This document shows positions 1 through 49,962 of a stretch of DNA of 64,000 nt, in pieces (the stretch's first letter is position 1; each line of letters starts with the position of its first letter). Under the pieces are notes generated by a model. That model had not been told where the DNA came from. It did not search any database and saw nothing but the letters and a program-made list of their open reading frames with translations. Both the position numbers and the translations under genes were made by a program. Source of the stretch: an uncultured archaeon (GTDB lineage: Archaea; Aenigmatarchaeota; Aenigmatarchaeia; QMZP01; JAFGSV01); contig CAZLFZ010000003.1 in NCBI GenBank assembly GCA_964559215.1, forward strand, positions 18,779 through 82,778, in the 5' to 3' direction.

Positions 1-3000
1 TCTAAATCACCATTAACATAGTAGTTACCCTTCCCTGCCGATTTCTTGTACCAGATTCTGAAGTCAAAGTAAGTGTTGGGAGAATACGTTTTTGTAGTGT
101 CCTCAAAAGCGGTCTGGTTAAGATATTTTATTTTGCCGTCAGAACAGAACAAGATAGTCAATCTTCTGTTATTCTGCTCGCCGAAATAGTTTGAGAAAAC
201 ATTTTTATCCGTTTGACTCGCATCCCCTTTGAATTCCACGACATAATCCCCATCCGGTTCCAACATTGTGTGATGAACCTGCTTCCAGTATGCCCCGGTA
301 GATGACCCAGAACTTATTTTCAACTGGTTATTTTCAACACTTGAATATGCCTCATAACCACCATCTTCTATCCAGTCATTTCCAACTGTGGCATTGTCAG
401 GTCTTTTGAAATCGTCGCCGAAAACGAATGTCCCGCTTATGTTGCTCTCGCTGGCAGCATCTGGATTTCCATAGTACATGTAAATCGAAAGGTTCGAATT
501 TTCCTGCAGCAGGGGAATTTTAACCCACACGGTTGTGTTGCCTTGGTTGCAGTCGTCGCCAATCCAATGATAAAGTCTTGTGTTTCCTCCCTTGCTTACC
601 GAATCATTGAAAAATACGAACCTGACATCACTACAGTCATTATTCATCCTGTTTCTTTGTATAAAATCAGTGGTGTTCAGGGTTATGTTCACCTGATAGT
701 CCGTCAGATTGCTTCCAGACTCTTCGGTTATGTTGATTTTTATCCTCCACTCCCAAGATTTGTTCCACCAATTTTGGGTATCGATGGAAACATACTGATT
801 CGGGCCATAGATTGTTTCTTCGGTCTGCAAGTCGATACTCGCATTCACCCTCAGATAAAACTCCTCAGGCGAACCCGAAGTCTCGTTAGCGAAATCCATC
901 GTATTGTTCGCCCAAATCCAGTACGAATAATCACCCCAGTCCCATATGCTCTCAAACACACCTGAATAGATATTCCCTGATCCGGAATAATCCAAGTCCA
1001 GCCATGTCCAGGTGCCGTTGGGGTATGTGACGTTCGCCCTGACCGTGTCTATCTCGACCCTTGACCAGACATCCGCAGATATTGTTACGTTCTGAGCATA
1101 ACCTTGAATTTGTGGTATCGCAACAACATTATCTATGGTAATCTCGTCTTGGACACTTACACTTACAGAATCATTCTGTTTCGAATTGGTATATACCAAA
1201 TCAGAGCCAGCATAACTAGCATTAACCGTGTTGGAGCCAATGTTAGCATCGTAAGGAATCATAGTGTGCAGAGCAGCATAACCACTACTATTCGTATCGT
1301 CAGAACCCAACACATTCCCATTTAACTTAAACGTTATCGATTCGCCTGTCACGGGGGAGGAATTGTCGTACAAAAGCCTTGCCTGGATTAGGATAGATCC
1401 GTTCCTGTACGGGTTCGTATCGTTGACCAGAACAATAGGTATCGATGTGTTTGCATAAACCGTTACACTTTTTGTGTCCCAGTCAGCTTCTTCTTCCTCG
1501 GACTCCGATCTCAGCTCTATTTCCTTTTGTCCAAGTCCCGCATCGTAAGACAGGTTCGCAGTTATGTTATTCCACAACAGACAGCCTGCACATAAAGTCT
1601 CATTGGAAATATTCATATCTCCCGTTATGTTCGTCCATTCAGGCGGAAGGGTCCAGTTAAGGGTTACGTTGTTCGTAATCTCCTCTCCTGTGTTGTTAAC
1701 ATAACCCTTTAACACATAACTCTGACCTCTCGTAACCTTTACAGAATACGCACTTATGTTAACGCTTAGCTTGGTCGGTCCCCTCACGCTTAGTATCTGG
1801 TTTTGCTGTTCGGCTAAAGACCTTTCCTCAAGACCGGGATTTGTATAGTTGACTGTGGCGGTGATGTCATACTCACCGGGCACGGTCGAGGAATTCGTTG
1901 TAATGTTGAAGGACGCTGTTTTATTCTCGGTGCTTGAGACATTGCCCAAATAACAATAACCTATCTGGTTTAGTTGCCCTGCCAAGGAGCAGTTACAGGT
2001 CATATTCACATCACAGCCAATCGTAACATTCACAGAAGTCATGTTGAGCGACCAGGGATTGACTATCGTTATATTGTAAACGGCTGACTGGTTCTGCTGT
2101 ACTTTACTTGGAGATATAACCGAGGACAGATTATCAGGTACATGGTGAATGATGAACGTGCTCGTTGCATTGTAATTGGGCGGAGAGCCGCCGCCGGACC
2201 AGTTAATCGTCACATTCCAGGTATATGTCCCTGGGTCAGCACCTGTCTGTATGGTGTCCTGAGCAAACTGGACTTCACAAGTCTCCCCCACAGACAGCGA
2301 ACCGCATAAGATTGACTGCTCATCAAACCATGCCGCCAGATCATTCTGCGGATCCAGCAAATTCAAGGTCACGTTCACATCATAAGCCGTGGATCCACCA
2401 GTGTTGTTGACCGTAACGTTGGCCCAGTCAATCGTATCCCCAGTCTCGTACTCATTGACAGAATTATCATACTCGTTCTCATGCTCCAGCTCAGTCACGT
2501 TCAAATCAGGGACGAGTATGGTCAAGGTAGTATACGCATTGTCAACCGAGCTCGCGCTGTAATACAAACTCGAATTGTCACCTATGGTGCAGTTGACCGT
2601 GTGCATCCCACCATCGACATCGCTCGTGTTCCACTCATAAACGGCATAACCGCTCTGGTTCGTGTAATTCGCACCGAGCTGCCCACCCTCGTGCCAGAAC
2701 ATGACAGAATAATCCTCAATTCCCGTCGAATAATTCGCATCACCGACCAGACATGTCAGGTTGATGACAGAACCCCTGGGACAGCTCCCGTCGTCAGGAT
2801 CAATCCAGGTCACGTTAGACCATCCGTAAACATCCCATGTAACCACAGAACCGTTATCCACATTAGCAGAAGAATCGTTCGCATAAACCGTTACGTTGTA
2901 GGTGCCCCTCTCCGTCGATTTATAGGTCAAATTATACGTATCACCAGACAGTAAAGTCAATGACCTGTTATCATCAAAACCACCACTTGGCATACCAATA

Positions 3001-6000
3001 TAAGCCCAGCTGGCATTCACACCGCCAGAATTGTCCGTTATATCAGCCGTTATGTTAACAGTCTGGTTTATGTTAATCAAGTCAGGGGTCACATCCTCGT
3101 TGGAGATCACAGGTGGGGTCACGTCCTGAATGTTTACGTATTTCATATCCGTCGTGTTGGAGTTCCCTTTCGTGTCATTCGCCACGAATCTGTATGCTAT
3201 GGTTTTCAGTTCAGCAGAACTTGGAATCTGCCTCGTTATGTTGCTCCAGTCAGGATTTCCAATGAACGAGCCAGAACCGTTCTGTTCCATAGACCCGGAA
3301 ACATTCCACTCAAAAACCCACGAATCCAGCTCACCGTTATCCGACCAGTTGCAGTAAAACTTGATCCATTCCAAAGGCTTAGGATTCGTGTTGTTTGCCC
3401 CCAGATTGTTCCATTCAGGTTCATCCCGGTCAATATAGAACGTATAATAACCCGAAATGTTATCTCCCGTATCATTTGTCAAAACATTTCCGTAAGGGTC
3501 TGTCAAAGTCACTAAAACGTTGTAATAGCCAGTCCCGTTTTTTGTTGTGTTCCACGGATTGGCATTCCAGACGCTTGCTATATCCAAAGTCTTACCGGCA
3601 CTCACATTCCTCTTCGTCTCTGTCTGAGCATCATCCACCTGCGTCGCGATAATCTCCCCAGTATCATTGACCTGTACCTGCATCAGGAAGTAAAGAGAAA
3701 TGTTCGTAGTCCCTGTATTTTTCACAGACGCCGCCGATAAGTTGACTAACCCGTCATCACCATAAACCGAATATTCAGTAGTGAGGTTCACCGTGACGTT
3801 GGCCCTCACAGAAAACTGATAGTTCGACGAAGTTTCATTTGCATCCCCGAAATTGTCCTGAGCCCATATGGAATAGTTGTAATCCCCCCACTGCCATGTA
3901 TAGCTGAAATTACAAGCCCAGGTATCACCTTGTGTGTTCACCATATCCACTGAGGTAGTAGAACTGTTGGGGTAAATTATATTGATTTTGGCCTGAGCTA
4001 CACCTGCACTGTCCGTGATTGTTGCCGATATCGTCAAATTCTGGTCATAACCAATTATTTGCGGCGTTGCCGTCACATCTGCAATATCAGGTCCTTCCAC
4101 CTCAATTCTGAATACATCACTTCCGTTAATAAAACCACCACTGTCGTTTTTCAGAACAGCTCCATCCAACCCTCTGAAGGCGGTGTAAACCCTGTAATAT
4201 CCGGTTGTGTTTCCGGTGGTATTCCAAGGGTCAGAATTCCAGATGTTGACAAGATTCAAACTATCACCTGCATTTATAGTTCTGGTAAATGTTTCATCCG
4301 CAACTACGCCTATGACCTCCCAATACCCACTTCCATTGCCCTCCACCTGCATCAACAAATACCCGGAGATGTTTAACGACCCCGTGTTTCTTATGCTGTT
4401 CCCAGCAATCTCCTCGCTCATGTTCGAAACCGTAGGATATGTGCTTAAAAACTGCCGACCGTATATCTCTACAGGTCCGGCAAATACCATCCAGCCGACG
4501 GTTTCATCTGCACCACCCTTTTCAGTACCAGAGCATGGATCTTCCTCCACTCCGAAATCTACAGAGCTTGTGGTCGGGTTGTTATATCTAATATAAGCAT
4601 TATCCCCACCTCCTACGGTTTGCATATTGGCTATGAGAACAGGTGGGTTGGTTACGGGGATCGAGAATGTCTGGGTTGCCCAGGGGCATTCATAAGGCGA
4701 TGCACAGTAATCAATATATCTGTCAGCTACTGTTGTTCCAAAATTGTAATCAACACCATTAACAGAACCGTTTCCAGGCTCGACTGCGATCCACCCAACC
4801 ATTTCGGGGCCATGGATATCTGACTGGCCCTCGTCCTCGTTGTGGGAAATCCGGAAGCTGCTTGAAGTTACGTCCATCATCCTTGTTTTATCATAGTCTG
4901 AATCGTCATAGCCCATTGTCTGTGAGACGACGACAGGCGCAGAAGAAAAGCTCATTCTGTACGATATAAGGTCATAAGCAGCGGGGTCAGCAGTATTATC
5001 ACCACCTATAGCCCTCCCGGTGGTTGTAGAGGTGGAATAATTACCCGCCTCTAATTTACGTCCGTCCGACAACACCCATGAGCCGTTCTCGACGACTATG
5101 TAGCTTATATTCTCGTCTGGGTGCACGTCGTCTCTGCAACCTCCCTCATTTGGCTCCTGCAACTTGAATTCAAACCCGTCCGAAGACACATTTGTTACCC
5201 TGCCAACAACTTCCTCATCCTGATTGGCATCGAAGTCGGCCGGACCGTGAACCACAACCGGTGTGGTATAGCTGTGTTTCAGACTAATTGTATGCCACGT
5301 CGTGTTGACCTTTGTTACGTTGGCCTCGCCAATGACTTTCCATGCGGCTGTGAAGTTGCTTTTGTTCTCAGCGTCAAGATTGCCGTAATACATGTAAATC
5401 GTCTGATTTGACAAAGCATCGAGTGATGGTATTTTTACCCATATTGAGGTATTGGTGTCATTGCAATCCGATTCGAGCCAGAATGGCAGCTCATCTCCGG
5501 TTGAGTTTGTAAATCTGATGTCGCTACATGAACCGTTCATCTTGCCCTGTGAAATCAGGTCTTTTGTATTGACGGAAATGTTCAATGCATACTCGACCAA
5601 GTCTGCACCCGAATTTTCGCTTATGTTAAACGGCATCCTGTAAGGCCAGTCTAAATCCAACCAAGTTTGATTGTCGAGCAAAACATTTTGGTTTGAACCA
5701 TAAAGATATTTTTCTGTCTGGACACCAACGCTCGCATTAGCCCTGAGATAAAAGGTCTCAGGCGAACTTGACGTATCGTTCCCAAAATCCACCGTGTTGT
5801 TTGCCCAGATCCAGTACGAGTAATCCCCCCAGTCCCAGATCCCAGCAAAAACACCGGAGTAGGAATTCCCGGACCCCGAGTAACCCATATCAACCCAGGT
5901 CCAGGAACCATTGGGATATGTCACGTTCGCCCTCACGATACCTATCTCAATCCTTGACCACACATCCGCAGATATGGTCACGTTCTGGCCATAACCCTGA

Positions 6001-9000
6001 ATCTGAGGCGTCGCAGCGACGTTGCCTATGCTGATATCATCCTGTACGCTGGCAACGAGAGAATCGTTGTATCTGGGATTCGTATAGATCGAACCAGAGC
6101 CTGCATAGGTTGCATTTACCTTTTTTGAGCCAAGGCCCGCATCGTACGGAACAGTAGCATAAAGAACAGCATAACCGGTGCTGTTCGTGGAGTTGGAGCC
6201 GAGCACGGTATCATTCAGCTTGAACATTATAGACTCCCCTGTGACGGGACTCGAGTTGTCATACAAAAGCCTTGCCATAATCTTGACAGAACTATTCCTG
6301 TAAGGATTGGTGTCATTCACCCAAACCTCGGGTATCGACGTGTTCGCATAAACGGTCACGGTTTCCGTTTTCCAGTCAGGCTCCTCTTCCTCAGACCCCG
6401 CTCTCAGTTCTATTTTCTGCTCACCAAGTTCAGCATCATAAGAAAGATTGGCGGTTATGTTGTTCCACAGCAAACAATCAGCACACAACGTTTCGTTCGA
6501 AACGTTCATATCCCCTGTTATATTCGTCCACTCAGGGGGCAGGGTCCAGTTAAGAGTCACCTGATTCGTGACCTGCGTCCCCGTGTTGTTCACATAACCC
6601 CTCAGACCCGTCGCAGAACCCCTCGTCACCTTTACCGAAAAGACCGTTACATTGACCCTCAATTTCGTCGGCCCTCTGACACTCAGTATCTGATTTTCCT
6701 GCTCAGTCCACGACCTCAACTCAAGTCCGGGATTCGTATAATTAACATTTGCATTGATGTCGTACTCCCCAGGCACGGTTGACGAATTCGTCGTGACATT
6801 GAACGATACCGTTTCATTTCCGCCATCAGAAACATTCCCCAGATAACAATAATTCAACTGATCCGTCTGTCCCGCCAACGAACAGTTGCAGGTCATATTC
6901 GAATGACAGCCAATCGTAACATTCACAGAGGTCACGTTCAGCGACCAGGGATTGACTATCGTTATATTGTAAATCACCGACTGCTTCTGCAGAATCTTGG
7001 TCGGAGATAATGATGAAGACAGATTATCAGGCACGTGATGTACAAAGAATGTGCTTGACGTGTTGTAATTTGGGGGACTGCCACCGCCAGACCAGTTAAT
7101 CGTAACGTTCCATGTATAAGTCCCGGGATCAGCACTTTCGAGTATCGTGTCACCCGAAAACTGAACCTCGCACACCTCCGAAACAGACAGCGAACCGCAC
7201 TCCTCAACCTGCTCGTCAAACCAGGTTGCCAAATCCCCAGCCGGATCCAGCAAATTCAAGGTCACGTTAACCTCGTAAGCGGTCGATCCTCCCGTATTGT
7301 TTACCGTAACGTTCACCCAGTCGATAGTATCCCCTGTCTCGTACTCATTCACAGAATGGTCATGCTCGTTCTCATGTTCGAGTACCGTCACGTTCAAATC
7401 AGGCACAAGCACCGTCACACTAGTGTACGCATTGTCAACCGCCGAAGCGTTGTAATACAAACTCGAATTGTCACCTATGGTGCAGTTGACCGTATGCAAC
7501 CCACCATCGACATTACTCGTGTTCCACTCGTACAAGGCATAACCGCTCTGGTTCGTGTAATTCGCTCCAAGTTGGCCGCCCTCATGCCAGAATGTGACAT
7601 AATAATCCGAAATCGCACCTGAGTAATTCGCATCCTCAACCAGGCAAATCAGGTTTATGACGCTCCCCCTTGGATAGCTTCCATCATCGGGATCAATCCA
7701 GCTCACGTTTGACCATCCATAGACATCCCAAAACACAACGGAACCATTATCAGCATTCCCTGACGAATCATTCGCATAAACCGTAGCGTTATACGTTCCC
7801 CTCTCCGTCGACTTATAGCTCAAGTTATACGTGTTCCCCGACAATAGGGTCATGGTCTCATTCTCATAACCGTCTCCAGGCACCCCTATGTACATCCAGC
7901 TCGTATTCACCGCCCCCGAATTATCCGTCACATCGGCCGTTATGTCAACACTCTGATTTATGTTGATCATACCAGGACTGACATACTCGTTCGATATCAC
8001 CGGGGGCGTCACGTCCTGCACATCGATATACTTCGTATCGGTCGTGTTATCATTGCCCTCGGTATCATTGGCGACGAACCTGTAAGCAATCGTGCGTATC
8101 TCCATCGAGCTCGGGATCTGCCTCGTTATGTTGCTCCAGTCAGGATTTCCAATGAACGAGCCAGAACCGTTCTGTTCCATAGACCCGGAAACATTCCACT
8201 CAAAAACCCACGAATCCAGCTCACCGTTATCCGACCAGTTGCAGTAAAATTCGACAAATTCCAAGGGCTTCGGATTGGTGTTGTTCGCTCCCAGATTATT
8301 CCATTCAGGCTCAGCCCTGTCGATGTATAAAGTATAATAACCCGTTATGTTATCTCCCGTATCATTTACCAGAACATTCCCGTCCAGATCAGTCAGGACA
8401 ACCAAAACGTTGTAATAACCCGTGCCATAATCATCGGTGTTCCAAGGATTCGCATTCCAGATGGGGCCCAACTCCAAATAACCCCCGGTGCTCACGTTCC
8501 TCATCGTCTGGGTTTGACTGTCATTCACTTGGGTCGCAATTACTTCCCCAGTATCGTTATCCGTAACCTGCATCAGCAGGTATCCAGAGGTATCAGTCGT
8601 ACCTTCATTATCAACAAGATTTGTAAGTTCTTCTTCACCTAGATTCATAACGGATGGAGCCTGTTCCACATATTTTCTCCCGTAGATTGTTGAAGTGTTA
8701 TCTATAGCAAACCAGCCAACGGGCTCTATTCCGTGACCTCCCGTGAAATCTGGGGTTTCCTCTATGGTTATATCGAATTGTGCAGTGCCAACATCCTTCA
8801 TTCTTGTGTTCGAATTATCTGTATAACCGTTTTCGTTCATCATCGCCCCTATCATACCGGGAGTATCACCAAAATTATTTGTGAACGACAGGGTCAGCCA
8901 TGCAGGCGAACTTCCAAGATCCGGCCCACAATCGTCCCAGCCGGTTTCAAAGTAAACACCATTTGTATAGGTTGTATTGGCAACGCCTTCTTCAATCGCC

Positions 9001-12000
9001 AAATAACCGATAGTTTCATAAGTATGGGAGCCGCTATCATTTGCTTCCTCAACCCTTATCTCCATGCTTGAAGATGTGGGGTTGTTTTGCCTGGTGTGGG
9101 CTCCTGCTTCAGCAGTCCCTGAATCACCCCCCTCGTTGTAGGATTGTATATCCGATATAACAGCTGGCGTGGAGCCGAAATCAAATCCAAAGTTTACCGT
9201 TTTATAGTTACTGTCTATTGAATCGGTTCCAACATCAGCCCTTAAATTTCCTATTATCCAACTCCCATTTTTTAAGGCAACCCACCCAAAGATCTCTGTT
9301 CCATGCGGACCATCCAAATTGTGGTATTCTTCCACCCTGACATCAAAACCACCTTTTCTGGTTGCGTTTATCCTTGCAGACATTTTCGCGTTGTCATTAT
9401 AAGTCATGGCATCAGCAAAAACCACAGGCGCTTCGGAATACATATAATTGAAATTAACAGTTTTCCAGTTATGATCGGTATCAATCGTTCCGGCCTCACC
9501 AACGATTTCGTATGTTGAACTGATGTTGCTTTTACTTCCCGCCTGCTTGTAACCATAATACATGTAAATAGTCTGTTTTGCTGAACCCTGCAGTAATGGT
9601 AGTTTGACCCACACCTTCGTATCGGTTGTGTTGCAACCCGATTCCAGCCAGAATGATAACTCGTCATTACTTGAATTTACAAATCTTATGTCGTTACAAG
9701 AGCCGTTCATTTTCCCCTGAGAAATCAAAGACTTTGTGTCGACAGAGATGTTTACCTGATAATTTGTAAGGTTGACTCCGAGATTTTCGGAAATGTTTAT
9801 CGGCATCCTGTAAGGCCAAGATTTGTTCATCCAGCCTGCCCATTCCGTGAGATATACATTTTTATTCGCACTATAAGTTTCTTTTTCTGTGTTTACCAGC
9901 ACAGTTGCGTTCACCCTTATTGAGAAATTTTCTGGATTATCAGAACTTGAGACTGGGAGTGCCGATGTGTCTTCTGCCTGCACAAAATACGAATACTTTC
10001 CCCATTGCCATGTATCGTTGAAATCCAGCTCCCAGATGTCACCCGACTTGTAGCCCATATTAAGAAGGACCGAGGAATTGTTTGGAAAAGTTACATTTGT
10101 TTTGACACTGCCCGAATCCACACCTACATTATCAGTAATATTCGTGGCTATGGTCACGGTTTGTCCATAACCAGTTATATTGGGTGTCGCGTTGAACCAA
10201 TTTATTTGGGGCGGTTCGGCATCAATTTTCGACTGTACCGATATAGTTTTTATATCGGTTGCGTTTAGATTCCCCCGGGTGTCATTTGCGTAAAATCTGT
10301 ATCCAATGATTTTTCCAGCAGAGTACGCTGGAATTTGCAGCGTTTTGTTTGACCATTTTCCTGTACCAGAAAAGCTCTCTGCTGACTTGTTCTCCCAAGA
10401 ATCATCTACCGTAGCATTCCAGGAAAATATCCATGATGAGAGATTGTAATCATCCTCCCAGTAAGCGTAGAATTTAACATAATCGTCAATCGATGGGTTC
10501 GTTTCGTTGGCACCGACATTTGACCAGGCAGGTGCTGCCGGATCATAAACCGTGAGCAATCTCGGGGTCGAATTTGATTCGCCTGCGTTTGATGCATTGC
10601 ACTGAACCCTGAAGTAATAGTTGCCTGTTACCGGAGCGGTTATGTTGAAATAATTCTCTGATGTCGTACTTGCTGTTATATTTCCTACAAAATAATAAGT
10701 AGCGTTCGAATAGATATCCTGTCCGCTTGTGGGCGTGTCGTTCCAAACTTCGGTGCGGTTGTCCTGCAGAATTATATAGACGTCCGTTGCGTTGGTGTCT
10801 CCGTCCACTTCTGAACAGTTTCCCTGAAAAAAGACGCTCTGGTTGAAAGCGATTGAAGGAAGACCGATGAAATCCCCTTCCGCAGTAAGGTTTGTCGGGT
10901 ATTCGATAGTCTCGTTCGAATAGATGAAACCGCTGCTTGAGTTGAAGAAAATCGCGAGCCACGGCTCGGCAATATGGCCCTGCTCAGCATCCCCGTTCTG
11001 ATCCTCTTCTGCGAGGAAATAACACATGTTGCTGCCGGCGTCATAATCCCCTGCTGGATACAGGCCGTTCCCCCCGTCTATCTCTGTGCTTGAACCGAAG
11101 CACGCCCCGTCAGCATAACTGGCAGAAAGGGTGACGTAATAGCTTCCGATATCGTACGGGTCGTTCTGGGAACCCAGGACACTGTCCGACTCCCAGCAGA
11201 GTTCGTATGTGTACGTGTCCGTCCCGTTACCCGTCTCATAAGTGTTGCACGCCTCGCTGTTGTAGTCGTCGTTTATTTCCCATGCAATGTAACCGCCTTC
11301 CTCATCCAGGGTATGCAATGCGCAGGGGTTGTAGCTCCCCTGGCACTCGAGGCCGTTAAGTCCTATCTCGACGCAGGAATTGTCCCATACGTTGGCCTGG
11401 GTGCCGCACTGGTGTATGTACCAGATTATGGTGTCGTCGTCGTCGGCTGTCTGGACCGAGGCCAGGACCGCCGGCCTGTAAGTCCACGAATACTGGAAAC
11501 TCCTTTCGTTCTGTACGTAATTCCAGCCGGAGGGGGTTCCCGCCCCGCTGCCGCAGTAGTCCTTGTCAAGCGTGAAATTCTGAACCTCGACCATCCTGGA
11601 ATTCCCTCCGTCATTGTCCGTTACATTGTGGATGCCCTTCTTCATTGCCATCCAGTACATGCCGACTCCCGTCGAGGGACAGTCATCGTCCTCGGTACCG
11701 GAGTCCCACGACTCCGCCCTGGCATAAAACCCTTCCTTGGTGACGTTCTTTATCCTCGTGGCGCACGGGTTGTCGTCATAGTTATAATCATATTCCACGT
11801 AGTGGACTACAACGGGAATACCATCAAACTCATTTTTGAATTTCACTTCAGTCCATGAACCTTGCTGCAAATCCGTTTCATGACCCCACTCACCAACAAT
11901 CTTCCTTTCTGTTGCCTTGTTGCGTGCATACGCGACATACTCGCCGAACCTGAATTCAAGGGTATGCACCCCAGGCGTCAGGACCTTGCTGATCTCATAG

Positions 12001-13736
12001 CCTGTTTCATTGCATGAGTAGTTTTCTATAAATACCGATGAATTACCAGGGCCGTTGTCGATCCATTGGTATTCCAGCACAGCGTAACCGCATTTTATTC
12101 CCAAAAATTTCAAATCATAATCTTCATTGACGTTGCTCCAAGTAGTTCCGTTTACCGCTGTAATCGTGAGATTCGCGGTTCCATTCGTCTCGAAAATCAC
12201 GGTCCATTTCCCACCTACTGTCGGATAGGATTGGACGTTTATTATGTTTATGTCCGCTCCTGCGTATCCACTGAATTCCGTAACTGTAAAAGTCACATGA
12301 GTCCCGTTCTCTGTGAAAGGCATGCCCGTTTCAGTCCATTCCCCTTCACATTCAAAATTGTCAAAGTCCCAGTCGTCGCATCTCAATATCATGCTGACAG
12401 GACCGTGCTTAGGCAGGGTGATTTCAGCATCCGAGAAATTTATGGGATTGACGGCAATCACTTCCGTGTTTATCACTTTCTCTTCCACTTTCTCTCTCAC
12501 AAGTCCGGTCTGGATGTTCTTTAACTCGGAAATGTTCCTCAGGCCGAATAATCTTATCAAACCACCCCTCCCTCCAACACTTCCGTCAAACTGGACATCG
12601 AGATTGAATCTCTCACCAATCTTCTTTAGTTCACCAAACTCTATTTTTTTAGAGTGTTTTCCTAATCTGAGTGTGCTGAGACTGTTCTTGAGCCGAGCCA
12701 TTTCCATTTCTGCAGCCGTGATGTTTTCGGCAGATGGAACGACAATCTCTTCCAGCATGGAATAAACTATCTCATAAATTTCCAACCTTGTTCCAGGCTC
12801 GACTTCGAAAACTAGTATGTAAGAGCTTTCCTTGAATCCAAACAGCGAGCATGTCTCAATGCACTCCTCATCAAATGTTATGACAAATTCTTCGGTTATG
12901 TTCGGCATTTCTGTTACATTCTCTGTTATGTTTTCCAGAAGGGTAACATTTTCAATGACAGTCGGAACCGTTAAATTCTTGGCGACGGTCACATTTTTGG
13001 ATGATGTAAGATTGGTCTCATTTTGATTCGTTACATTTTCGATTAAAGGCACCGTGACATTCGTTACATTTTCTATTGTCACGTTTTCGATTATCGGGGC
13101 GGTAAAATTCGTCACATTCCCCCCCGTTTCATTCAACGTTTCATCAATTTCTTCTTCGTCTTCTCCATTCCCGGTATTATCTGTTTCATTCGTCAACGTT
13201 TCATTTATTGTAACATTAGTCAAATTTGATTCATTAGAACTGATTATAAAACCTGTTACAGAGATGGTGTTTCCAGCCAGTCTGTATTTGTTACCCATTC
13301 CGGAACTGTCAAGAACCAAGTATCTTTCACCGTCTTTTTCAAGATAAACCCTGACGGTTCCGTTCCCTTCAATTTTCCCATTCAACTTTAAAGATACAAG
13401 TTCTCCTGCATTCTCCGGCTTCCATAAGTATTCTCTAGGCTCTTCATATGAAAGCCCCAGTTTATCAACATGAATTGTTTCCCTTTCTTGAATAAAAAGC
13501 CCGGTAAAGTTGATGCTAAAGATTCCAAAGAAAGTTGTGGAAATGGAGATAACCAAAATTAATAATAAAACCCTTTTGTTCCACTGACCCGCAAAATTTC
13601 TAATTCTCAAAGTAGTGGGAGAAGGGGGTTTTGTACCAAGATATTTTGTTTTAACTTTATCTCCCACCCTATAATTTTCATAGTAATAAGGACCGAAAAC
13701 CTTGTTGCCACGCTTTATGTATTTCTTGTGGACCAA
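1..13736 (-). CDS. giant N-glycosylated cell-surface protein, 5' portion of gene (TTG start at 13736 preceded by in-frame TGA; reading frame open to position 1, >4570 codons; 3' end outside window)
   Basis: Hand translation of large parts of one minus frame gave no stop; the ORF track shows only short out-of-frame ORFs on either strand here. N-terminus (L)VHKKYIKRGNKVFGPYYYENYR followed by a hydrophobic signal-anchor is paralogous to the N-terminus of the 19813-25857 product. There are hundreds of NxS/T sequons. The segment ..NVQSYPTVGGKWTVIFETNGTANLTITAVNG..ENYSCNETGYEISKVL..HTLEFRFGEYVAYA is about 60% identical to the protein encoded at about 62790-63090 on the plus strand. Confidence 0.75.
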   Translation of the reverse strand, partial: MVHKKYIKRGNKVFGPYYYENYRVGDKVKTKYLGTKPPSPTTLRIRNFAGQWNKRVLLLILVISISTTFFGIFSINFTGLFIQERETIHVDKLGLSYEEPREYLWKPENAGELVSLKLNGKIEGNGTVRVYLEKDGERYLVLDSSGMGNKYRLAGNTISVTGFIISSNESNLTNVTINETLTNETDNTGNGEDEEEIDETLNETGGNVTNFTAPIIENVTIENVTNVTVPLIENVTNQNETNLTSSKNVTVAKNLTVPTVIENVTLLENITENVTEMPNITEEFVITFDEECIETCSLFGFKESSYILVFEVEPGTRLEIYEIVYSMLEEIVVPSAENITAAEMEMARLKNSLSTLRLGKHSKKIEFGELKKIGERFNLDVQFDGSVGGRGGLIRLFGLRNISELKNIQTGLVREKVEEKVINTEVIAVNPINFSDAEITLPKHGPVSMILRCDDWDFDNFECEGEWTETGMPFTENGTHVTFTVTEFSGYAGADINIINVQSYPTVGGKWTVIFETNGTANLTITAVNGTTWSNVNEDYDLKFLGIKCGYAVLEYQWIDNGPGNSSVFIENYSCNETGYEISKVLTPGVHTLEFRFGEYVAYARNKATERKIVGEWGHETDLQQGSWTEVKFKNEFDGIPVVVHYVEYDYNYDDNPCATRIKNVTKEGFYARAESWDSGTEDDDCPSTGVGMYWMAMKKGIHNVTDNDGGNSRMVEVQNFTLDKDYCGSGAGTPSGWNYVQNERSFQYSWTYRPAVLASVQTADDDDTIIWYIHQCGTQANVWDNSCVEIGLNGLECQGSYNPCALHTLDEEGGYIAWEINDDYNSEACNTYETGNGTDTYTYELCWESDSVLGSQNDPYDIGSYYVTLSASYADGACFGSSTEIDGGNGLYPAGDYDAGSNMCYFLAEEDQNGDAEQGHIAEPWLAIFFNSSSGFIYSNETIEYPTNLTAEGDFIGLPSIAFNQSVFFQGNCSEVDGDTNATDVYIILQDNRTEVWNDTPTSGQDIYSNATYYFVGNITASTTSENYFNITAPVTGNYYFRVQCNASNAGESNSTPRLLTVYDPAAPAWSNVGANETNPSIDDYVKFYAYWEDDYNLSSWIFSWNATVDDSWENKSAESFSGTGKWSNKTLQIPAYSAGKIIGYRFYANDTRGNLNATDIKTISVQSKIDAEPPQINWFNATPNITGYGQTVTIATNITDNVGVDSGSVKTNVTFPNNSSVLLNMGYKSGDIWELDFNDTWQWGKYSYFVQAEDTSALPVSSSDNPENFSIRVNATVLVNTEKETYSANKNVYLTEWAGWMNKSWPYRMPINISENLGVNLTNYQVNISVDTKSLISQGKMNGSCNDIRFVNSSNDELSFWLESGCNTTDTKVWVKLPLLQGSAKQTIYMYYGYKQAGSKSNISSTYEIVGEAGTIDTDHNWKTVNFNYMYSEAPVVFADAMTYNDNAKMSARINATRKGGFDVRVEEYHNLDGPHGTEIFGWVALKNGSWIIGNLRADVGTDSIDSNYKTVNFGFDFGSTPAVISDIQSYNEGGDSGTAEAGAHTRQNNPTSSSMEIRVEEANDSGSHTYETIGYLAIEEGVANTTYTNGVYFETGWDDCGPDLGSSPAWLTLSFTNNFGDTPGMIGAMMNENGYTDNSNTRMKDVGTAQFDITIEETPDFTGGHGIEPVGWFAIDNTSTIYGRKYVEQAPSVMNLGEEELTNLVDNEGTTDTSGYLLMQVTDNDTGEVIATQVNDSQTQTMRNVSTGGYLELGPIWNANPWNTDDYGTGYYNVLVVLTDLDGNVLVNDTGDNITGYYTLYIDRAEPEWNNLGANNTNPKPLEFVEFYCNWSDNGELDSWVFEWNVSGSMEQNGSGSFIGNPDWSNITRQIPSSMEIRTIAYRFVANDTEGNDNTTDTKYIDVQDVTPPVISNEYVSPGMININQSVDITADVTDNSGAVNTSWMYIGVPGDGYENETMTLLSGNTYNLSYKSTERGTYNATVYANDSSGNADNGSVVFWDVYGWSNVSWIDPDDGSYPRGSVINLICLVEDANYSGAISDYYVTFWHEGGQLGANYTNQSGYALYEWNTSNVDGGLHTVNCTIGDNSSLYYNASAVDNAYTSVTVLVPDLNVTVLEHENEHDHSVNEYETGDTIDWVNVTVNNTGGSTAYEVNVTLNLLDPAGDLATWFDEQVEECGSLSVSEVCEVQFSGDTILESADPGTYTWNVTINWSGGGSPPNYNTSSTFFVHHVPDNLSSSLSPTKILQKQSVIYNITIVNPWSLNVTSVNVTIGCHSNMTCNCSLAGQTDQLNYCYLGNVSDGGNETVSFNVTTNSSTVPGEYDINANVNYTNPGLELRSWTEQENQILSVRGPTKLRVNVTVFSVKVTRGSATGLRGYVNNTGTQVTNQVTLNWTLPPEWTNITGDMNVSNETLCADCLLWNNITANLSYDAELGEQKIELRAGSEEEEPDWKTETVTVYANTSIPEVWVNDTNPYRNSSVKIMARLLYDNSSPVTGESIMFKLNDTVLGSNSTNSTGYAVLYATVPYDAGLGSKKVNATYAGSGSIYTNPRYNDSLVASVQDDISIGNVAATPQIQGYGQNVTISADVWSRIEIGIVRANVTYPNGSWTWVDMGYSGSGNSYSGVFAGIWDWGDYSYWIWANNTVDFGNDTSSSPETFYLRANASVGVQTEKYLYGSNQNVLLDNQTWLDLDWPYRMPFNISENSGADLVEYALNISVNTKDLISQGKMNGSCSDIRFTNSTGDELPFWLESDCNDTNTSIWVKIPSLDALSNQTIYMYYGNLDAENKSNFTAAWKVIGEANVTKVNTTWHTISLKHSYTTPVVVHGPADFDANQDEEVVGRVTNVSSDGFEFKLQEPNEGGCRDDVHPDENISYIVVENGSWVLSDGRKLEAGNYSTSTTTGRAIGGDNTADPAAYDLISYRMSFSSAPVVVSQTMGYDDSDYDKTRMMDVTSSSFRISHNEDEGQSDIHGPEMVGWIAVEPGNGSVNGVDYNFGTTVADRYIDYCASPYECPWATQTFSIPVTNPPVLIANMQTVGGGDNAYIRYNNPTTSSVDFGVEEDPCSGTEKGGADETVGWMVFAGPVEIYGRQFLSTYPTVSNMSEEIAGNSIRNTGSLNISGYLLMQVEGNGSGYWEVIGVVADETFTRTINAGDSLNLVNIWNSDPWNTTGNTTGYYRVYTAFRGLDGAVLKNDSGGFINGSDVFRIEVEGPDIADVTATPQIIGYDQNLTISATITDSAGVAQAKINIIYPNSSTTSVDMVNTQGDTWACNFSYTWQWGDYNYSIWAQDNFGDANETSSNYQFSVRANVTVNLTTEYSVYGDDGLVNLSAASVKNTGTTNISLYFLMQVQVNDTGEIIATQVDDAQTETKRNVSAGKTLDIASVWNANPWNTTKNGTGYYNVLVTLTDPYGNVLTNDTGDNISGYYTFYIDRDEPEWNNLGANNTNPKPLEWIKFYCNWSDNGELDSWVFEWNVSGSMEQNGSGSFIGNPDWSNITRQIPSSAELKTIAYRFVANDTKGNSNTTDMKYVNIQDVTPPVISNEDVTPDLININQTVNITADITDNSGGVNASWAYIGMPSGGFDDNRSLTLLSGDTYNLTYKSTERGTYNVTVYANDSSANVDNGSVVTWDVYGWSNVTWIDPDDGSCPRGSVINLTCLVGDANYSTGIEDYSVMFWHEGGQLGANYTNQSGYAVYEWNTSDVDGGMHTVNCTIGDNSSLYYSASSVDNAYTTLTILVPDLNVTELEHENEYDNSVNEYETGDTIDWANVTVNNTGGSTAYDVNVTLNLLDPQNDLAAWFDEQSILCGSLSVGETCEVQFAQDTIQTGADPGTYTWNVTINWSGGGSPPNYNATSTFIIHHVPDNLSSVISPSKVQQNQSAVYNITIVNPWSLNMTSVNVTIGCDVNMTCNCSLAGQLNQIGYCYLGNVSSTENKTASFNITTNSSTVPGEYDITATVNYTNPGLEERSLAEQQNQILSVRGPTKLSVNISAYSVKVTRGQSYVLKGYVNNTGEEITNNVTLNWTLPPEWTNITGDMNISNETLCAGCLLWNNITANLSYDAGLGQKEIELRSESEEEEADWDTKSVTVYANTSIPIVLVNDTNPYRNGSILIQARLLYDNSSPVTGESITFKLNGNVLGSDDTNSSGYAALHTMIPYDANIGSNTVNASYAGSDLVYTNSKQNDSVSVSVQDEITIDNVVAIPQIQGYAQNVTISADVWSRVEIDTVRANVTYPNGTWTWLDLDYSGSGNIYSGVFESIWDWGDYSYWIWANNTMDFANETSGSPEEFYLRVNASIDLQTEETIYGPNQYVSIDTQNWWNKSWEWRIKINITEESGSNLTDYQVNITLNTTDFIQRNRMNNDCSDVRFVFFNDSVSKGGNTRLYHWIGDDCNQGNTTVWVKIPLLQENSNLSIYMYYGNPDAASESNISGTFVFGDDFKRPDNATVGNDWIEDGGYEAYSSVENNQLKISSGSSTGAYWKQVHHTMLEPDGDYVVEFKGDASQTDKNVFSNYFGEQNNRRLTILFCSDGKIKYLNQTAFEDTTKTYSPNTYFDFRIWYKKSAGKGNYYVNGDL
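240..10300. repeat. intragenic tandem super-repeats (at least 3 units of about 4.2-4.9 kb) within the giant gene; unit junction landmarks '..a(t/a)tacatgtaaat(c/a)g' near 475, 5388 and 9557
   Basis: DNA self-similarity at offset of about 4.9 kb, e.g. 990-1170 vs 5880-6070 (about 80% identical) and 700-900 vs 5600-5800. A block of about 130 bp at 3228-3360 is essentially identical to 8119-8250. Antisense artefact ORFs 2481-2954 and 7356-7622 in the track encode near-identical peptides, which confirms the duplication. Confidence 0.7.
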
Positions 13737-14200
13737 TCACTTCACCAGTTAACCTATAGGTGGCATGCTACCGATTTATAATTGGAATAAATCAGTTAAC
13801 CTACACTATATTATTCGGGAAGGTTGCTTAATAATATAGCTTAAGAAAAAACCAGAAACATGACGAAATGTTCGGAAAAGATCTGATCAAAACGGAAATT
13901 TGTTTTACCCAGCAGGATGGTTCGAATGAAATTTAAGTTCGGAAAGCCTTATAGAATACTTGGCAGGGGAGTAGAAGTTATTTCGGGACAACGCACGTGA
14001 AAAGGCGGACAGTTAACTTTTTAAAGCTTTGCTTACATCCATATAGATTAGAACTGGAAAATACTGCTCCTTCTAGGCAGGTTAACCAGAGCATAAAGAA
14101 TATGCGAAAACAATAAGAACAATGAGAAAATAAAACATATTGAGAACAAGATTAAGATTAAATATAAAATCATGATTATCGATTAAGGAGATGATAAAGT

Positions 14201-16003
14201 ATGATAAATGCAAAGAAGATAGTCCCGGACACCAGCGTCCTAATTCCTGGGACAGTATCGGGACTCATAAAAGCTGGTAAAATCAAGCGCGCCAGGGTGA
14301 TAATACCAATGGCCGTTGTCGACGAACTGCAGGCGCAGGCCTCGAGGCACAGGGACATCGGCTTTTCCGGCCTTGCTGAGATAAAGAAAATCAGGGAAGT
14401 TGGAGAAAAGCAAGGCGTGCGTATAGAATTCGTGGGTGAGCGGCCCACCATGGAAGAGATACAGCTTGCCAAGAAGGGCAGGATAGACGCGCTAATCAGG
14501 GACGTCGCCAAGCACGAGCATGCGATGCTGCTAACGTCTGACTATGTGCAGGCATTGGTGGCCGAGGCAGAGAACATCGAGGTAAAGTACCTACCAAAGG
14601 AACCATTGAGAAGAATCAGACTCGAATCCTTTTTCACCCCGGACACACAATCGGTTCACCTGAAGGTCGGGGTTAATCCTATGGCCAAAAAAGGCAGGCC
14701 CGGCAACGTGAACCTCGTGAACATCCGGAACAAGAAATGCACAGAGGAGGAAATAAAGGGCATAATAAACCAGGTCATGTCCAAGGCCAGGACAGATCAG
14801 GAGTCATTCATAGAAATAAGCAAACAGGGAGCCTTGGTTGTGCAGCTCGGAGATTACCGAATAGCCATAACCAGGCCTCCGTTTTCGGATGCGCTCGAGT
14901 TGACAGCCGTCAGGCCTATTGCGAAAGTCCGGCTAGCCGACTACAAGATGCACAAGCAATTGGAAAAGGACATAGTCGAAAAGTCTAGCGGCGTGCTCAT
15001 AGCAGGCCCTCCCGGTTCAGGGAAGTCGACTTTTGCCGCGAGCCTGGCCGATTACCTTGTTTTCCACAACAAGATAGTCAAGACATTCGAGCAGCCCAGG
15101 GATTTGCAGGTAGGGCCAGAGGTGACGGAGTATGCTCCCCTGGAGGGAGACTGGGAGAAGACGGCAGAGCTGCTGCTGCTTGTCAGGCCCGACTATACGA
15201 TATTCGACGAGATCAGAAAAACAAAGGACTTCAGGGTTTTCGGGGACATGCGCCTTGCCGGCGTTGGCATGATAGGCGTGGTTCATTCCACCGGCCCTGT
15301 CTCGGCGATACAAAGATTCATAGGCAGGCTTGAGCTGGGCATAATACCCCATGTCATAGATACCGTCATCTACATAAAGGACGGGCATATAGAAGAGGTT
15401 TACGCCCTTTCGCTCACGGTTAAGATACCGACGGGCATGCAGGACGAGGACCTCACCAGGCCAGTTGTGGAGATCAGGGATTTCGAAACCAAGGAGCTCA
15501 AGTATGAGATATACACATACGGTGAGGAGAACGTAATAGTTCCTGTCCAGGCAGATGAAAAGGAATCGTCCCTCAAGAAACTCGCGAAGGAATCCATATA
15601 TTCCAAGCTCAGGCACTGGGACCCGGCCATGCAAGTAGAATTCCTGAGTGAAAACCGGATAGCTATAAGGGTAAGAAACGACGTTATAGCCAAACTGATA
15701 GGCAAAAAAGGCAAGAACATAGAGCAGATAGAGAAACAGCTGGGCGTGCGTATATCTGTGGAGCCCAAGCAGGCAACGCTGAAGGGTGAGATAGACTTCG
15801 ACTGGGAAGAGACGGGCGCCAATTTCTACCTGCTGGTGGACCCGAAACTCACGGGCAAGAACTTGGACATATACGACGGCGAAGACTTTCTATTCTCTGC
15901 GATAGCTGGCAGAAACGGCAGGATAAAAATCAGGAAAAGGACCGAGCTGGGAAGAAAGGCCCTGCAGGCGTATCTGAGCAAGAACCTGAGGGTACTAGTC
16001 TGA
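14201..16003 (+). CDS. PIN-domain / PhoH-PilT-like P-loop ATPase / KH-domain protein (COG1855-type)
   Basis: N-terminal PIN-like acidic residues (IVPDTSVLIPG.. AVVDELQ). Walker A GPPGSGKSTF. C-terminal KH motif IGKKGKNIEQIEKQLGV. GGAG upstream of the ATG. Confidence 0.88.
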   Translation: MINAKKIVPDTSVLIPGTVSGLIKAGKIKRARVIIPMAVVDELQAQASRHRDIGFSGLAEIKKIREVGEKQGVRIEFVGERPTMEEIQLAKKGRIDALIRDVAKHEHAMLLTSDYVQALVAEAENIEVKYLPKEPLRRIRLESFFTPDTQSVHLKVGVNPMAKKGRPGNVNLVNIRNKKCTEEEIKGIINQVMSKARTDQESFIEISKQGALVVQLGDYRIAITRPPFSDALELTAVRPIAKVRLADYKMHKQLEKDIVEKSSGVLIAGPPGSGKSTFAASLADYLVFHNKIVKTFEQPRDLQVGPEVTEYAPLEGDWEKTAELLLLVRPDYTIFDEIRKTKDFRVFGDMRLAGVGMIGVVHSTGPVSAIQRFIGRLELGIIPHVIDTVIYIKDGHIEEVYALSLTVKIPTGMQDEDLTRPVVEIRDFETKELKYEIYTYGEENVIVPVQADEKESSLKKLAKESIYSKLRHWDPAMQVEFLSENRIAIRVRNDVIAKLIGKKGKNIEQIEKQLGVRISVEPKQATLKGEIDFDWEETGANFYLLVDPKLTGKNLDIYDGEDFLFSAIAGRNGRIKIRKRTELGRKALQAYLSKNLRVLV

Positions 16004-16004
16004 T

Positions 16005-16268
16005 TCACCCCCTTTTTGAATAGTGATATTTCATCAAAATCAGCGTCACGTTTAGAACAACACCTACAATATTGGCCACCACGACGGCGAAGCTGCCTAT
16101 ACCAAGGCCATAGACGAGCCACATCAGCATGCCGAAACCCAACAATATGTTAAGCCAATATGACAGATCGTGAAGACTCTTCGTTTTGTATCCCCTTACG
16201 ATTTGGGGCAGGAAGCCCGATGTTGTTATGGCGGCAGCAAACAGACCGAACAGTTCCCAGTTAATCAT
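16005..16268 (-). CDS. SemiSWEET (PQ-loop/MtN3 half-transporter), 87 aa, 3 TM
   Basis: FLPQIVRGYKTKS PQ-loop motif; ..WLVYG.. and ANIVGVVLNVTLILMKY align closely with bacterial SemiSWEETs (e.g. FLPQVLRV..TK..D.S..W..YG..ANV..LYYKL). Confidence 0.8.
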   Translation of the reverse strand: MINWELFGLFAAAITTSGFLPQIVRGYKTKSLHDLSYWLNILLGFGMLMWLVYGLGIGSFAVVVANIVGVVLNVTLILMKYHYSKRG

Positions 16269-16382
16269 ATTAAAAATATGATTCGCACTTATATTATTTC
16301 ACCACAGTTTAACACGCATGTTGCCAATCGTTAACATCGATCGGATCTTAAGCTTAAAAAACCACCCAACAATAATAAAACC

Positions 16383-17282
16383 ATGAGAAAATCACCTAAG
16401 CTTGTTGCTTGGACATTGGCGATTTTTTTATTCTTCGTTCCCCTTTCCAGCGCTAGCTCATACACATTTTACTTGGAACCGACGGATGGGATGGTCGAGC
16501 TGGAAATAAGACAGCCGGGGGTTTCCCTGAAAAGGATGTATTTCAACATTCCAGGGCAGAACAAGAGATTCGTGGTGAGGGTTGACAGGATAGACGCCGA
16601 TGTAGACTGGGTTTACGATTATTTCATGATCTCCAGCACGGGTATGCAGGGCGAACCGGAGTCTGTTGCTTTTGACATCAGGGTGAACAAATCATGGGTC
16701 AGCGATAACAACATAGACCTGAAAACGATCGCCCTTGGCATCTACGACGAAGATTGGACCAGGCTGTCTGTTATACCGGTCTCGGAAGATGCCGATTTCT
16801 TGCACTACAGAGCGGATCCGCCAAAACTGGAGGGTTTGTTTGCCCTGTCGGGAGAGCCGGTGCTTGTAGACATACGAGTCACAAGCCCCTGCAACGAGAA
16901 CGATGTTTGCGAGCCGGAACGCGGGGAAGACAGGGAAAACTGCCCTGACTGCATCAGGATCGTCCCAGGCAGATGCGTCCCCTCGGAAAAATACTGCATT
17001 GATGACTACCTTTTCAGGTGCAGCGCCGACGGCTCGGAATACAGCCTCGAGAGGTGCGAATTTGGGTGCGCTGGCGATACGTGCCTGTTAGCGGCAGGCG
17101 GAACGTCGGCCGGTATGGCCATTGCGCTGAATCCTGTATTCGTTTCTGTGCTGGCTGTCTTGCTGACTGTTGTAATTTACCTGGCATTGCTGGTAAAAAG
17201 GATGAGGAATGAATTGCTGAACGTAGAGGAAGTAAAAATCTCGCACGAAGACGTCAAGAAAATCGTAAAAAGAAAAGCGTGA
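16383..17282 (+). CDS. secreted Cys-rich protein with N-terminal signal peptide and C-terminal TM anchor plus basic tail
   Basis: Signal peptide MRKSPKLVAWTLAIFLFFVPLSSASS; Cys-rich block CNENDVCEPERGEDRENCPDCIRIVPGRCVPSEKYCIDDYLFRCSADGSEYSLERCEFGCAGDTC; C-terminal hydrophobic helix followed by KRMRNE. Confidence 0.6.
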   Translation: MRKSPKLVAWTLAIFLFFVPLSSASSYTFYLEPTDGMVELEIRQPGVSLKRMYFNIPGQNKRFVVRVDRIDADVDWVYDYFMISSTGMQGEPESVAFDIRVNKSWVSDNNIDLKTIALGIYDEDWTRLSVIPVSEDADFLHYRADPPKLEGLFALSGEPVLVDIRVTSPCNENDVCEPERGEDRENCPDCIRIVPGRCVPSEKYCIDDYLFRCSADGSEYSLERCEFGCAGDTCLLAAGGTSAGMAIALNPVFVSVLAVLLTVVIYLALLVKRMRNELLNVEEVKISHEDVKKIVKRKA

Positions 17283-17312
17283 ATCCCTTTTTGGCAGAAA
17301 ACAAAGCCAAGT

Positions 17313-18317: not shown

Positions 18318-18527
18318 TTCCTTCTTAAAAAGCTGACTATTTCAACTTCAAAATTTGTAGAATTCCCGAAAATTTCAAATCATAAAAATTTGTCAAAGAA
18401 CTATTTTAATAGATGGCGGATTTCTCATGATACTTTATATCAAGGTATCAAGGTTTCGGATAGGAAAACAAAATAAATCTTCTGTCACTAGCGAAAATTC
18501 GACGGAAACACAGCTTTTCAGAACAAG

Positions 18528-19780: not shown

Positions 19781-19812
19781 AATATTTTTTACTCTAGATG
19801 ATTAAAATAGTT

Positions 19813-25857: not shown

Positions 25858-26083
25858 CAGCTCACCAACTACTTGCCTTATTTTCGCATCCAGGAATAGC
25901 TAATTGATAGCTAATTATTACTAATTATTATATTGTAAGTAACCTTTAATAAAGAGCTGGTTAAACCCACATGTTTGGTGAGCTTTCATTACCTCATAAT
26001 CGGGCGCATTCACCTGTTACTTACATTAATGGAATGGGTAAGAAACTGAAATGTTCGACGACTGAAACGTTATCAATTGGATG

Positions 26084-26854: not shown

Positions 26855-26861
26855 TTTCCCT

Positions 26862-27410: not shown

Positions 27411-27540
27411 CGTTACCTCGCGCTTCTACAGATCACGATTCGTGTTATGTTTTTCGTATTTTATTTTTATATGCTCTGCTTAATTAAGTTTTGGTAAGAA
27501 GCCTCATATTTATTAACGAAGAGAATACTTAAGATTTAAT

Positions 27541-41297: not shown

Positions 41298-41298
41298 A

Positions 41299-41628: not shown

Positions 41629-41727
41629 AGTAGATTAAAACACCCAAAAGATTTAAACTTTTCTGTTTTTTGTATATTTTTTCGATTTAAATAAAAATCT
41701 TTTTAATCCCAAAACGAATTATTATTC

Positions 41728-49125: not shown

Positions 49126-49126
49126 T

Positions 49127-49810: not shown

Positions 49811-49962
49811 AATTTTTCGGTATCCTCCAGCTATGCATCAAATTCTTTCCCAGTTCTTTCACTTCTTTCTTGATTATCTTTTCAAACCAGATAATTAAAT
49901 TAATAACAATAATAACGAAATATAAATACCGAAATTCAGAAATTTCAAAAAATAAGCAAGAG

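Follow-up and report, generated by a model that had tools for sequence, protein, structure and literature searches.

Very large proteins with DUF2341 domains have been described in two settings. In Methanococci, large DUF2341 proteins of the arCOG03508 type are encoded in type IV pilus loci and are regarded as putative adhesins by analogy with PilY1 (PMC4858521), and in Patescibacteria DUF2341 occurs in proteins of more than 4,000 amino acids (giant DUF2341/FhaB), which have been proposed as host-interaction proteins of these ultrasmall symbionts (PMC11809585). Here we describe a giant surface-protein gene from an uncultured archaeon of the Aenigmatarchaeota (DPANN), which lies on the minus strand at the left end of a 64,000-nucleotide stretch of contig CAZLFZ010000003.1 (hereafter the window). 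Like the DUF2341 proteins of Methanococci and Patescibacteria, its predicted product is very large, secreted or surface-located, and DUF2341-bearing. Unlike the arCOG03508-type proteins, it has a predicted N-terminal transmembrane (TM) anchor, three DUF2341 domains and triplets of H-lectin-like domains, and no pilin, PilC-like or other type IV pilus assembly genes adjoin it in our Pfam scans, which covered most open reading frames (ORFs) of at least 150 amino acids (aa) in the window. We consider it likely that the gene carries an ancient duplication of two multi-kilobase units, called B and C in the following, whose interiors have been re-homogenised by intragenic gene conversion.

Giant repeat adhesins are familiar from bacteria, for instance Embp/Ebh, SiiE and the RTX adhesins of the LapA/MpIBP type. 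The protein described here resembles them in its length of thousands of residues and in tandem beta-sandwich modules that would project binding domains. However, the repeats of bacterial adhesins are usually single domains of 80-170 aa, whereas in our protein a block of about ten domains and 1,100-1,640 aa is repeated, and the archaeal anchoring and N-glycosylation context is a further difference. A higher-order period of several different Ig/Fn-like domains, repeated in tandem in a giant protein, is found in titin and nebulin. The layout is similar, but titin and nebulin are intracellular proteins of eukaryotes with exon-based repeats, and no homology is implied. In the vlsE cassettes of Borrelia and the MgPa repeats of Mycoplasma genitalium, non-reciprocal recombination between diverged repeats leads to a mosaic surface protein. 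There, silent donor cassettes outside the expressed gene diversify it, whereas in our case both partners belong to a single ORF, and the visible net outcome is that they are made alike. The SPEARE proteins of Nanohaloarchaeum antarcticus, a DPANN episymbiont, are several thousand residues long, contain protease and endonuclease domains, and are thought to mediate host contact. By their general description, they resemble our protein in size and in the DPANN setting, but Pfam scans detected neither protease nor endonuclease domains in the latter. In Apilactobacillus kunkeei, recombination shapes the diversity of the giant genes Giant1-5, but recent conversion among the paralogous giant genes was not observed (PMC12863079); in contrast, the conversion proposed here would take place within one gene.

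Giant repeat adhesins and conversion-driven surface mosaicism are already well known, and the locus is a clear example of concerted evolution rather than of a new mechanism. Particular to it are the scale of the unit (about ten different domains and 3.3 kb within a period of 4.2-4.9 kb), the persistence of the arrangement across lineages that are only 55% identical, and the clean evidence that homogenisation within a single ORF of this uncultured DPANN archaeon was recurrent and independent. Literature searches returned no description of the super-repeat of this family or of its N-terminal motif. The locus suggests that multi-domain super-repeats of kilobase size can make up a giant surface protein, that they can be older than lineages diverged by 45% and yet be continually re-homogenised, and that the similarity of repeats cannot be read as their age.

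The minus-strand frame extends from 13736 to base 3 over 4,578 codons with no stop, in line with a sequence-only reading of this DNA that had reported a frame of more than 4570 codons open to the window edge, where its 3' end is cut. In the ortholog L007 (CAZTJN010000014.1) the ORF continues for 688 codons beyond the point equivalent to the window edge. Our gene therefore probably comprises about 5,270 codons, of which about 690 would lie outside the window, so that the window holds the 5' part of about 87%.

The encoded protein appears to be organised hierarchically, with a period of about 1,400-1,640 aa made up of an Ig-like array, a DUF2341 domain and three H-lectin-like domains, and with one short unit (A) and the two long units B and C (Table 1). 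Self-comparison of the DNA of positions 1-14500 gave just two off-diagonal matches, namely 767-3692 against 5660-8582 (C against B; offset 4,893, 2,931 nt, 75.6% identity) and 5383-5648 against 9553-9818 (B against A; offset 4,170, 267 nt, 71.5% identity). At the protein level, where repeats were found by chunked and masked self-comparison, B and C are 72-78% identical. Unit A resembles both of them over about 340-520 aa with 40-52% identity, in head and tail only, and is devoid of the central array of about 600 aa of the long units. The two H-lectin-like triplets share 26-37% amino acid identity (about 1.6 kb of each period). The sequence-only reading had proposed at least three tandem units of 4.2-4.9 kb with an overall identity of about 80%, to be checked by a self dot-plot. 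The offset diagonals are indeed present, the second of them being short, and two long units that can be aligned at the DNA level stand; the third, however, is short and diverged, and the measured identity of B and C falls below the proposed value. The junction landmarks placed near 475, 5388 and 9557 turned out to be the ends of the three DUF2341 domains, each of which is closed by an IYMYYG/YMYYG motif (9552-9566, 5382-5396 and 468-482) with spacings of 4,170 and 4,914 nt.

Despite their similarity, B and C are not young. In the B/C codon alignment pS is 0.68 (dS about 1.7, effectively saturated), pN is 0.16 and dN/dS is 0.10, which indicates that both units are old, functional and under purifying selection. 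Just two patches show a low dS: aa 2055-2144 with a dS of about 0.5, and aa 1816-1875 with a dS of 0.27. The latter holds an exact run of 134 nt, which corresponds closely to the island of about 100% identity previously noticed at 3228-3360 and 8119-8250 (exact limits in Table 1). In 5,000 shuffles of the aligned B/C codon columns, the longest stretch of exact identity was 25.7 nt on average and at most 56 nt. The windows flanking the island are 83-93% identical, compared with a background of about 75%. This pattern fits the island being the youngest conversion tract and the flanking windows together with the second low-dS patch being older, nested tracts.

Alternatively, the island could be kept identical by selection at the nucleotide level, for instance as an embedded RNA, as an internal promoter or binding site, or as the template/variable-repeat pair of a diversity-generating retroelement (DGR). 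DGRs target surface proteins in DPANN archaea, and a length of 134 nt is within the range of DGR repeats. Such targeting is also, by its topic, what one preprint deals with (10.1101/2020.04.01.020958). However, the same segment shows just 68-72% DNA identity between genomes, its predicted RNA fold is ordinary (z = -0.44) and it has no match in Rfam. Both copies occupy homologous positions of paralogous coding units, within the well-conserved flanks mentioned above. As the copies have zero mismatches, none is adenine-specific, and no reverse transcriptase was found among the ORFs scanned against Pfam, which were most of those of at least 150 aa in the window. We consider selection on the nucleotide sequence extremely improbable as the cause of the identity, and the DGR and embedded-RNA readings of the island, as well as a reading as tandem array, were rejected.

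A scan of one genome per GTDB species revealed six related loci. Two homolog searches, one using the first 1,064 aa of the protein and the other using unit C and the C-terminus, did not return the protein itself. Exact-pattern scans for window bases 1-54 in genome and metagenome contig collections, and for the island in metagenome contigs, gave no hits. L007 is colinear with aa 1210-4578 of our protein at 55% identity and includes both long units and both triplets, which points to the two-unit layout being ancestral. The complete homolog L011 of 5,812 aa contains only one full long unit, so that the number of units differs among lineages. In a four-sequence sliding window with units B and C from our genome and their counterparts B7 and C7 from L007, the core of the units is far more similar within than between genomes (B-C 72-92% and B7-C7 100%, against 51-76% between genomes). 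At the 3' end with the DUF2341 domain this relation is reversed, with 44-61% for B-C compared to 64-70% for B-B7, and in the 5' part of the units B7-C7, within L007, reaches 56% compared to 71% for C-C7. The boundaries of the homogenised region differ between the two genomes. Neighbor-joining trees with 200 bootstraps gave the same picture: in the core, our B and C group together (bootstrap 99-100), as do the two units of L007 (100) and the homologs P0034 and P0036 (98-100), whereas at the 3' end (aa 2650-2790) our B groups with B of L007 (100). The relatives also contain tracts of their own. In L007, 2009-4309 and 6821-9121 are identical over 2,301 nt, with an abrupt drop to about 55% on both sides, and in L011 a tract of 348 nt with 96.3% identity connects the DUF2341 regions of two units.

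We propose that this mosaic reflects an ancestral duplication, after which the interior of the units was homogenised in each lineage independently. An ancient tandem duplication would have given rise to B and C before the split from the lineage that is now 55% identical. Non-reciprocal homologous recombination between the units would then have overwritten their interiors repeatedly and separately in each lineage, while their 3' ends with the DUF2341 domains would have escaped conversion and kept their positional orthology. The sequence-only reading had left the choice between ongoing gene conversion and recent unit turnover. The first is supported by the exact island in a synonymously saturated background, by the mosaic phylogeny and by the independent tracts in relatives; the second is contradicted by the values of pS and dN/dS and by the two-unit layout shared with the 55%-identical ortholog.

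A recent duplication would mean that B and C are young, diverging copies and that the island is a remnant not yet reached by mutation. It would readily explain that the copies within a genome are more alike than the orthologs. On the other hand, synonymous sites are saturated outside the few patches, the trees join the 3' ends of the units according to position, with full bootstrap support, the architecture is colinear with L007, and the probability of a 134-nt remnant in a 75% background is vanishing. This explanation is therefore very unlikely. The same grade applies to parallel duplications, in which each lineage would have doubled its own single long unit: the variable number of units, with just one full long unit in L011, speaks for such events, but in their flanks and at their 3' ends B and C are each orthologous to the L007 unit in the same position, the homogenised boundaries of the two genomes differ, and our copies are saturated and nevertheless hold an exact tract.

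The third possibility to be weighed is an assembly artefact, in which the assembler would have generated the units or the perfect island by collapsing or expanding a repeat, by joining strains into a chimera or by bubble popping. As had been expected for repeats of this kind, the gene is difficult to assemble. Short-read metagenome contigs break repeatedly within it, and homologs are mostly found on tiny contigs of 1.3-5 kb. Moreover, the 2,301-nt tract of L007 is perfectly exact and has abrupt edges, as if one edge of the assembly graph had been traversed twice. In contrast, about 24% of the sites distinguish B from C, their four flanks are all different, and sequences with an identity of 75% are much too dissimilar for an assembler to merge them; a colinear two-unit ortholog with 55% identity is present in an independently assembled genome, and the frame is open over its 4,578 codons and has a dN/dS of 0.10. 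The locus is also present, with 97.4-100% identity, in independent short-read contigs. One of them, the Logan contig L001 (SRR9700624, k=31), is identical to window positions 8220-18814 and ends 30 nt inside the island. This lies k-1 nt into the island, exactly where a de Bruijn unitig has to end if two different right flanks follow the island in the reads; such an end points to a real branch of the graph and supports the repeat being real. We judge an artefact to be quite unlikely, and unlikely in particular for the architecture, while the exact identity of the tracts, particularly of that in L007, may still be a rounded-up near-identity. Such genes are systematically broken, and possibly mis-counted, in short-read metagenome-assembled genomes. 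Population long-read data at this locus could directly measure the rates and tract lengths of gene conversion in an uncultured archaeon.

Several points nevertheless weigh against the proposed history and function. Both the copy number of the units and the exact identity of the island are taken from assemblies, and the window and L001 may go back to the same sample. Bubble popping or double traversal of a collapsed edge could raise near-identity to 100%, especially over the 2,301 nt of L007. The members of the pairs P0034/P0036 and L008/L010 were binned separately, which makes these pairs weaker evidence for homogenisation within a genome. Finally, an adhesin or lectin function is deduced from the domain families alone: the AF2 model of H-lectin triplet 1, although all-beta, is poor (pLDDT 49, alignment of three sequences), and a phmmer search of the whole protein against PDB sequences gave zero matches.

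The domain content is consistent with a cell-surface location. The domain annotation of one unit, which had been suggested beforehand, was carried out with Pfam and yielded Ig-like, PKD, Big_7, CARDB and NPCBM_assoc domains; in unit B these beta-sandwich families (PKD, Big_7, CARDB and NPCBM_assoc) precede a DUF2341 domain with its best stretch at aa 2736-2816. DUF2341 (PF10102) is recognised in three stretches of the protein with 172.4 bits (cutoff 23.4), whereas a scan against NCBIfam gave no match for the giant protein. The linker is 40% identical at the amino acid level to aa 3333-3447 and 39% to aa 4201-4318. The segment following the third DUF2341 domain, aa 4438-4578, is a probable concanavalin-A (ConA)/LamG-like domain. 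Its orthologous segments have matches to PF13385 (LamG) below the threshold (E 0.019-0.12), it has a marginal BLASTP match to the PF06439 domain of L011 (E 0.004), and in L011 domains of PF13385 and PF06439 come after the DUF2341 domains. N-X-S/T sequons are about threefold enriched, with 260 observed and 82 expected from the composition. The orthologs L007 and L008 end with ...KAVPHGQSP and ...VVPKGYVP, thus without a hydrophobic C-terminal tail; the C-terminus of our protein is outside the window. In this respect they differ from archaeal S-layer, PGF-CTERM and other C-terminally anchored surface proteins, which would bear a TM segment or sorting signal at that end. From the excess of sequons, the N-terminal anchor and the tail-less C-termini of the orthologs, the protein is predicted to be N-terminally anchored, heavily glycosylated and extracellular. 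The early designation as a surface protein thus agrees with the basic segment followed by a TM helix, with the sequons and with the Ig-like, PKD, CARDB, NPCBM_assoc, H_lectin and DUF2341 domains.

Table 1 Features of the giant gene and its product. Window positions are counted from the first nucleotide of the 64,000-nucleotide stretch; functional designations are predictions.
Feature	Residues (aa)	Window position	Strand	Basis or remark
Basic leader, predicted cytoplasmic	1-54	13575-13736	minus	sequence
Conserved N-terminal leader motif KKYIKRGxKxFGPYYYExYR...KxKYLG		13632-13736	minus	common to ORF 19813-25857
Single hydrophobic TM helix after basic stretch	55-81	13494-13574	minus	sequence
Low-complexity, sequon-rich stalk (NVT/NET/NLT repeats)	165-290	12867-13244	minus	sequence
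Unannotated domain of ~115 aa	494-611	about 11904-12257	minus	no Pfam hit
H-type lectin domain	629-680	11697-11852	minus	PF09458, 49.2 bits for the whole protein (cutoff 24), best stretch here
Short unit A: head domain (PAWSNVGAN), Ig-like domains, DUF2341 #1	1065-1400	9537-10544	minus	
H-lectin-like triplet 1, three internal repeats of ~90 aa	1401-1699	8640-9536	minus	PF09458, 26.8 bits
Long unit B: ~10 beta-sandwich domains, ends in DUF2341 #2	1700-2799	5340-8639	minus	
H-lectin-like triplet 2	2800-3100	4437-5339	minus	weak PF09458, E 0.0096, 16.5 bits (under cutoff)
Linker: extra copy of the unit's first domain (GYLLMQV) and Ig-like domain	3101-3325	3762-4436	minus	
Long unit C, paralog of B, ends in DUF2341 #3	3326-4437	426-3761	minus	
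Start of probable concanavalin-A/LamG-like domain, cut by window edge	4438-4578	3-425	minus	
Exact island, copy in unit B		8116-8249		identical to 3226-3359
Exact island, copy in unit C		3226-3359		identical to 8116-8249

In the proposed architecture, the basic leader and the single TM helix would anchor the protein in the membrane, the helix presumably acting as an N-in signal-anchor with the topology given by the positive-inside rule, and the sequon-dense remainder would be extracellular. This extracellular part would consist of Ig-, PKD- and CARDB-like beta-sandwiches placed among modules of carbohydrate-binding type (H-type lectin, DUF2341 and ConA/LamG-like), so that the Ig-like arrays could serve as spacers and the H_lectin, DUF2341 and ConA-like modules as binding sites. 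On the cell surface, the protein probably functions as a long adhesin or tether that binds glycans multivalently. DPANN archaea, the Aenigmatarchaeota among them, are generally assumed to live in attachment to other cells, which makes giant surface proteins prime candidates for the contact, and a role of this protein in the cell-cell contact of the DPANN lifestyle is plausible. A more far-reaching idea is that B and C form an intragenic cassette pair, in which segmental conversion between the diverged ten-domain lectin/Ig modules together with occasional gain or loss of a unit continually reshuffles the surface of a giant host-contact protein in an episymbiotic archaeon. It would be an archaeal, self-contained analogue of antigenic or host-range variation in bacteria, and such variation may be linked to the leader KKYIKRG-GPYYYE as the mark of a whole class of DPANN surface proteins. 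We regard this as unlikely; no evidence for programmed variation was found at the giant gene.

The likely start codon of the gene is the TTG at 13736. The first residues of the product, LVHKKYIKRGNKVFGPYYYENY, can be aligned without gaps to homologs whose N-termini begin with Met (MVHKKYIKRG), among them MVHKKYIKRGNKIFGPYLY, and the sequence GGTGA is located 5 nt upstream of the TTG. Further upstream on the minus strand, within 13760-13800, the 11-mer TAGGTTAACTG occurs twice at a distance of about 47 nt. Both copies sit between a TATA-like element, TTATAAAT, and the start codon, and the pair could be a binding site for a regulator.

The same leader is found at the start of a second giant ORF in the window, which is encoded at 19813-25857 and has 2,014 aa (leader at 25750-25857 on the minus strand, compared with 13632-13736 on the minus strand in the gene described above). 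The common leader reads M-V-[YH]-K-K-Y-I-K-R-G-x-K-x-x-G-P-Y-Y-Y-E-x-[YF]-R...Y-L-G, and a basic stretch and a single TM helix come next. A phmmer search with aa 1-74 against 1.84 billion representative sequences returned at least 500 matches with E<=1e-3. Among the 150 matches listed, nearly all start at residue 1, the proteins have lengths of up to 3,256 aa, and those with a taxonomic name belong to Aenigm-, Woese- and Pacearchaeota. Neither Pfam nor NCBIfam has a model for the leader, and its motif strings did not occur in the literature searched. The leader may be a signal, not described so far, by which DPANN archaea sort or anchor their surface proteins.

The genes surrounding the giant ORF code for a PIN-KH ATPase, KaiC-like ATPases, DUF7504 proteins and CBS and PAS proteins according to Pfam. 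The adjacent PIN-KH ATPase stays below the cutoff of the T2SSE family (22.8 compared to 24.9 bits). Its named homologs with 63-83% identity all come from Candidatus Aenigm(at)archaeota, the lone exception among the named homologs being one Nanoarchaeota entry at the bottom of the list with 62%, and the unit homologs P0033 and P0036 belong to Aenigmatarchaeota as well.

Giant surface-protein ORFs are not confined to the left end of the window. A fourth one, from about 57778 to 64000 on the plus strand, is open from 57721 over 2,093 codons up to the right edge, beyond which it continues; non-coding DNA or a CRISPR array at 58-64 kb was ruled out, as the region is occupied by this ORF. Together, the giant surface-protein ORFs at 3-13736, 19813-25857 and 42999-47267 and the one at the right edge cover about 47% of the window. 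The unannotated domain at aa 494-611 of the giant protein is 54% identical to aa 1698-1805 of the right-edge ORF (about 62812-63135, plus strand). It is also matched with 41-67% identity in several large proteins from NCBI, JGI and ENA (P0002-P0009), one of which is named Woesearchaeota and two of which are named archaeon. At 47430-51503, genes for a PMT-family glycosyltransferase, a GT2 glycosyltransferase and a sulfatase adjoin a surface ORF of 1,422 aa with LamG and NPCBM_assoc domains. This gene set fits a local modification of the glycans of the giant surface proteins.

Three independent contigs from two strains (L002, L013 and L015) all end at about 12304-12310 in the giant gene, and no exact repeat of at least 20 nt from this region is present elsewhere in the window; a segment that is hypervariable between strains may start here. 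In a sister strain with about 97.5% identity, the segment of the window with a KaiC-like gene, the giant ORF of 2,014 aa and a further KaiC-like gene is missing or replaced. Contig L014 jumps from window position 19149 to 27200 with an IS1595-family transposase in between, and L013 has ATPase_2/DUF234 genes instead. The loss or replacement in the sister strain indicates that the second giant gene is located in a strain-variable island. KaiC-like ATPase/DUF7504 genes are unusually dense in the window as a whole, with at least 8 ORFs, including those at 17313-19780, 26084-28089 and 40623-42585, and two fragment ORFs of the KaiC-like type, at 18528-18836 and 55679-55987, share 88% identical DNA.

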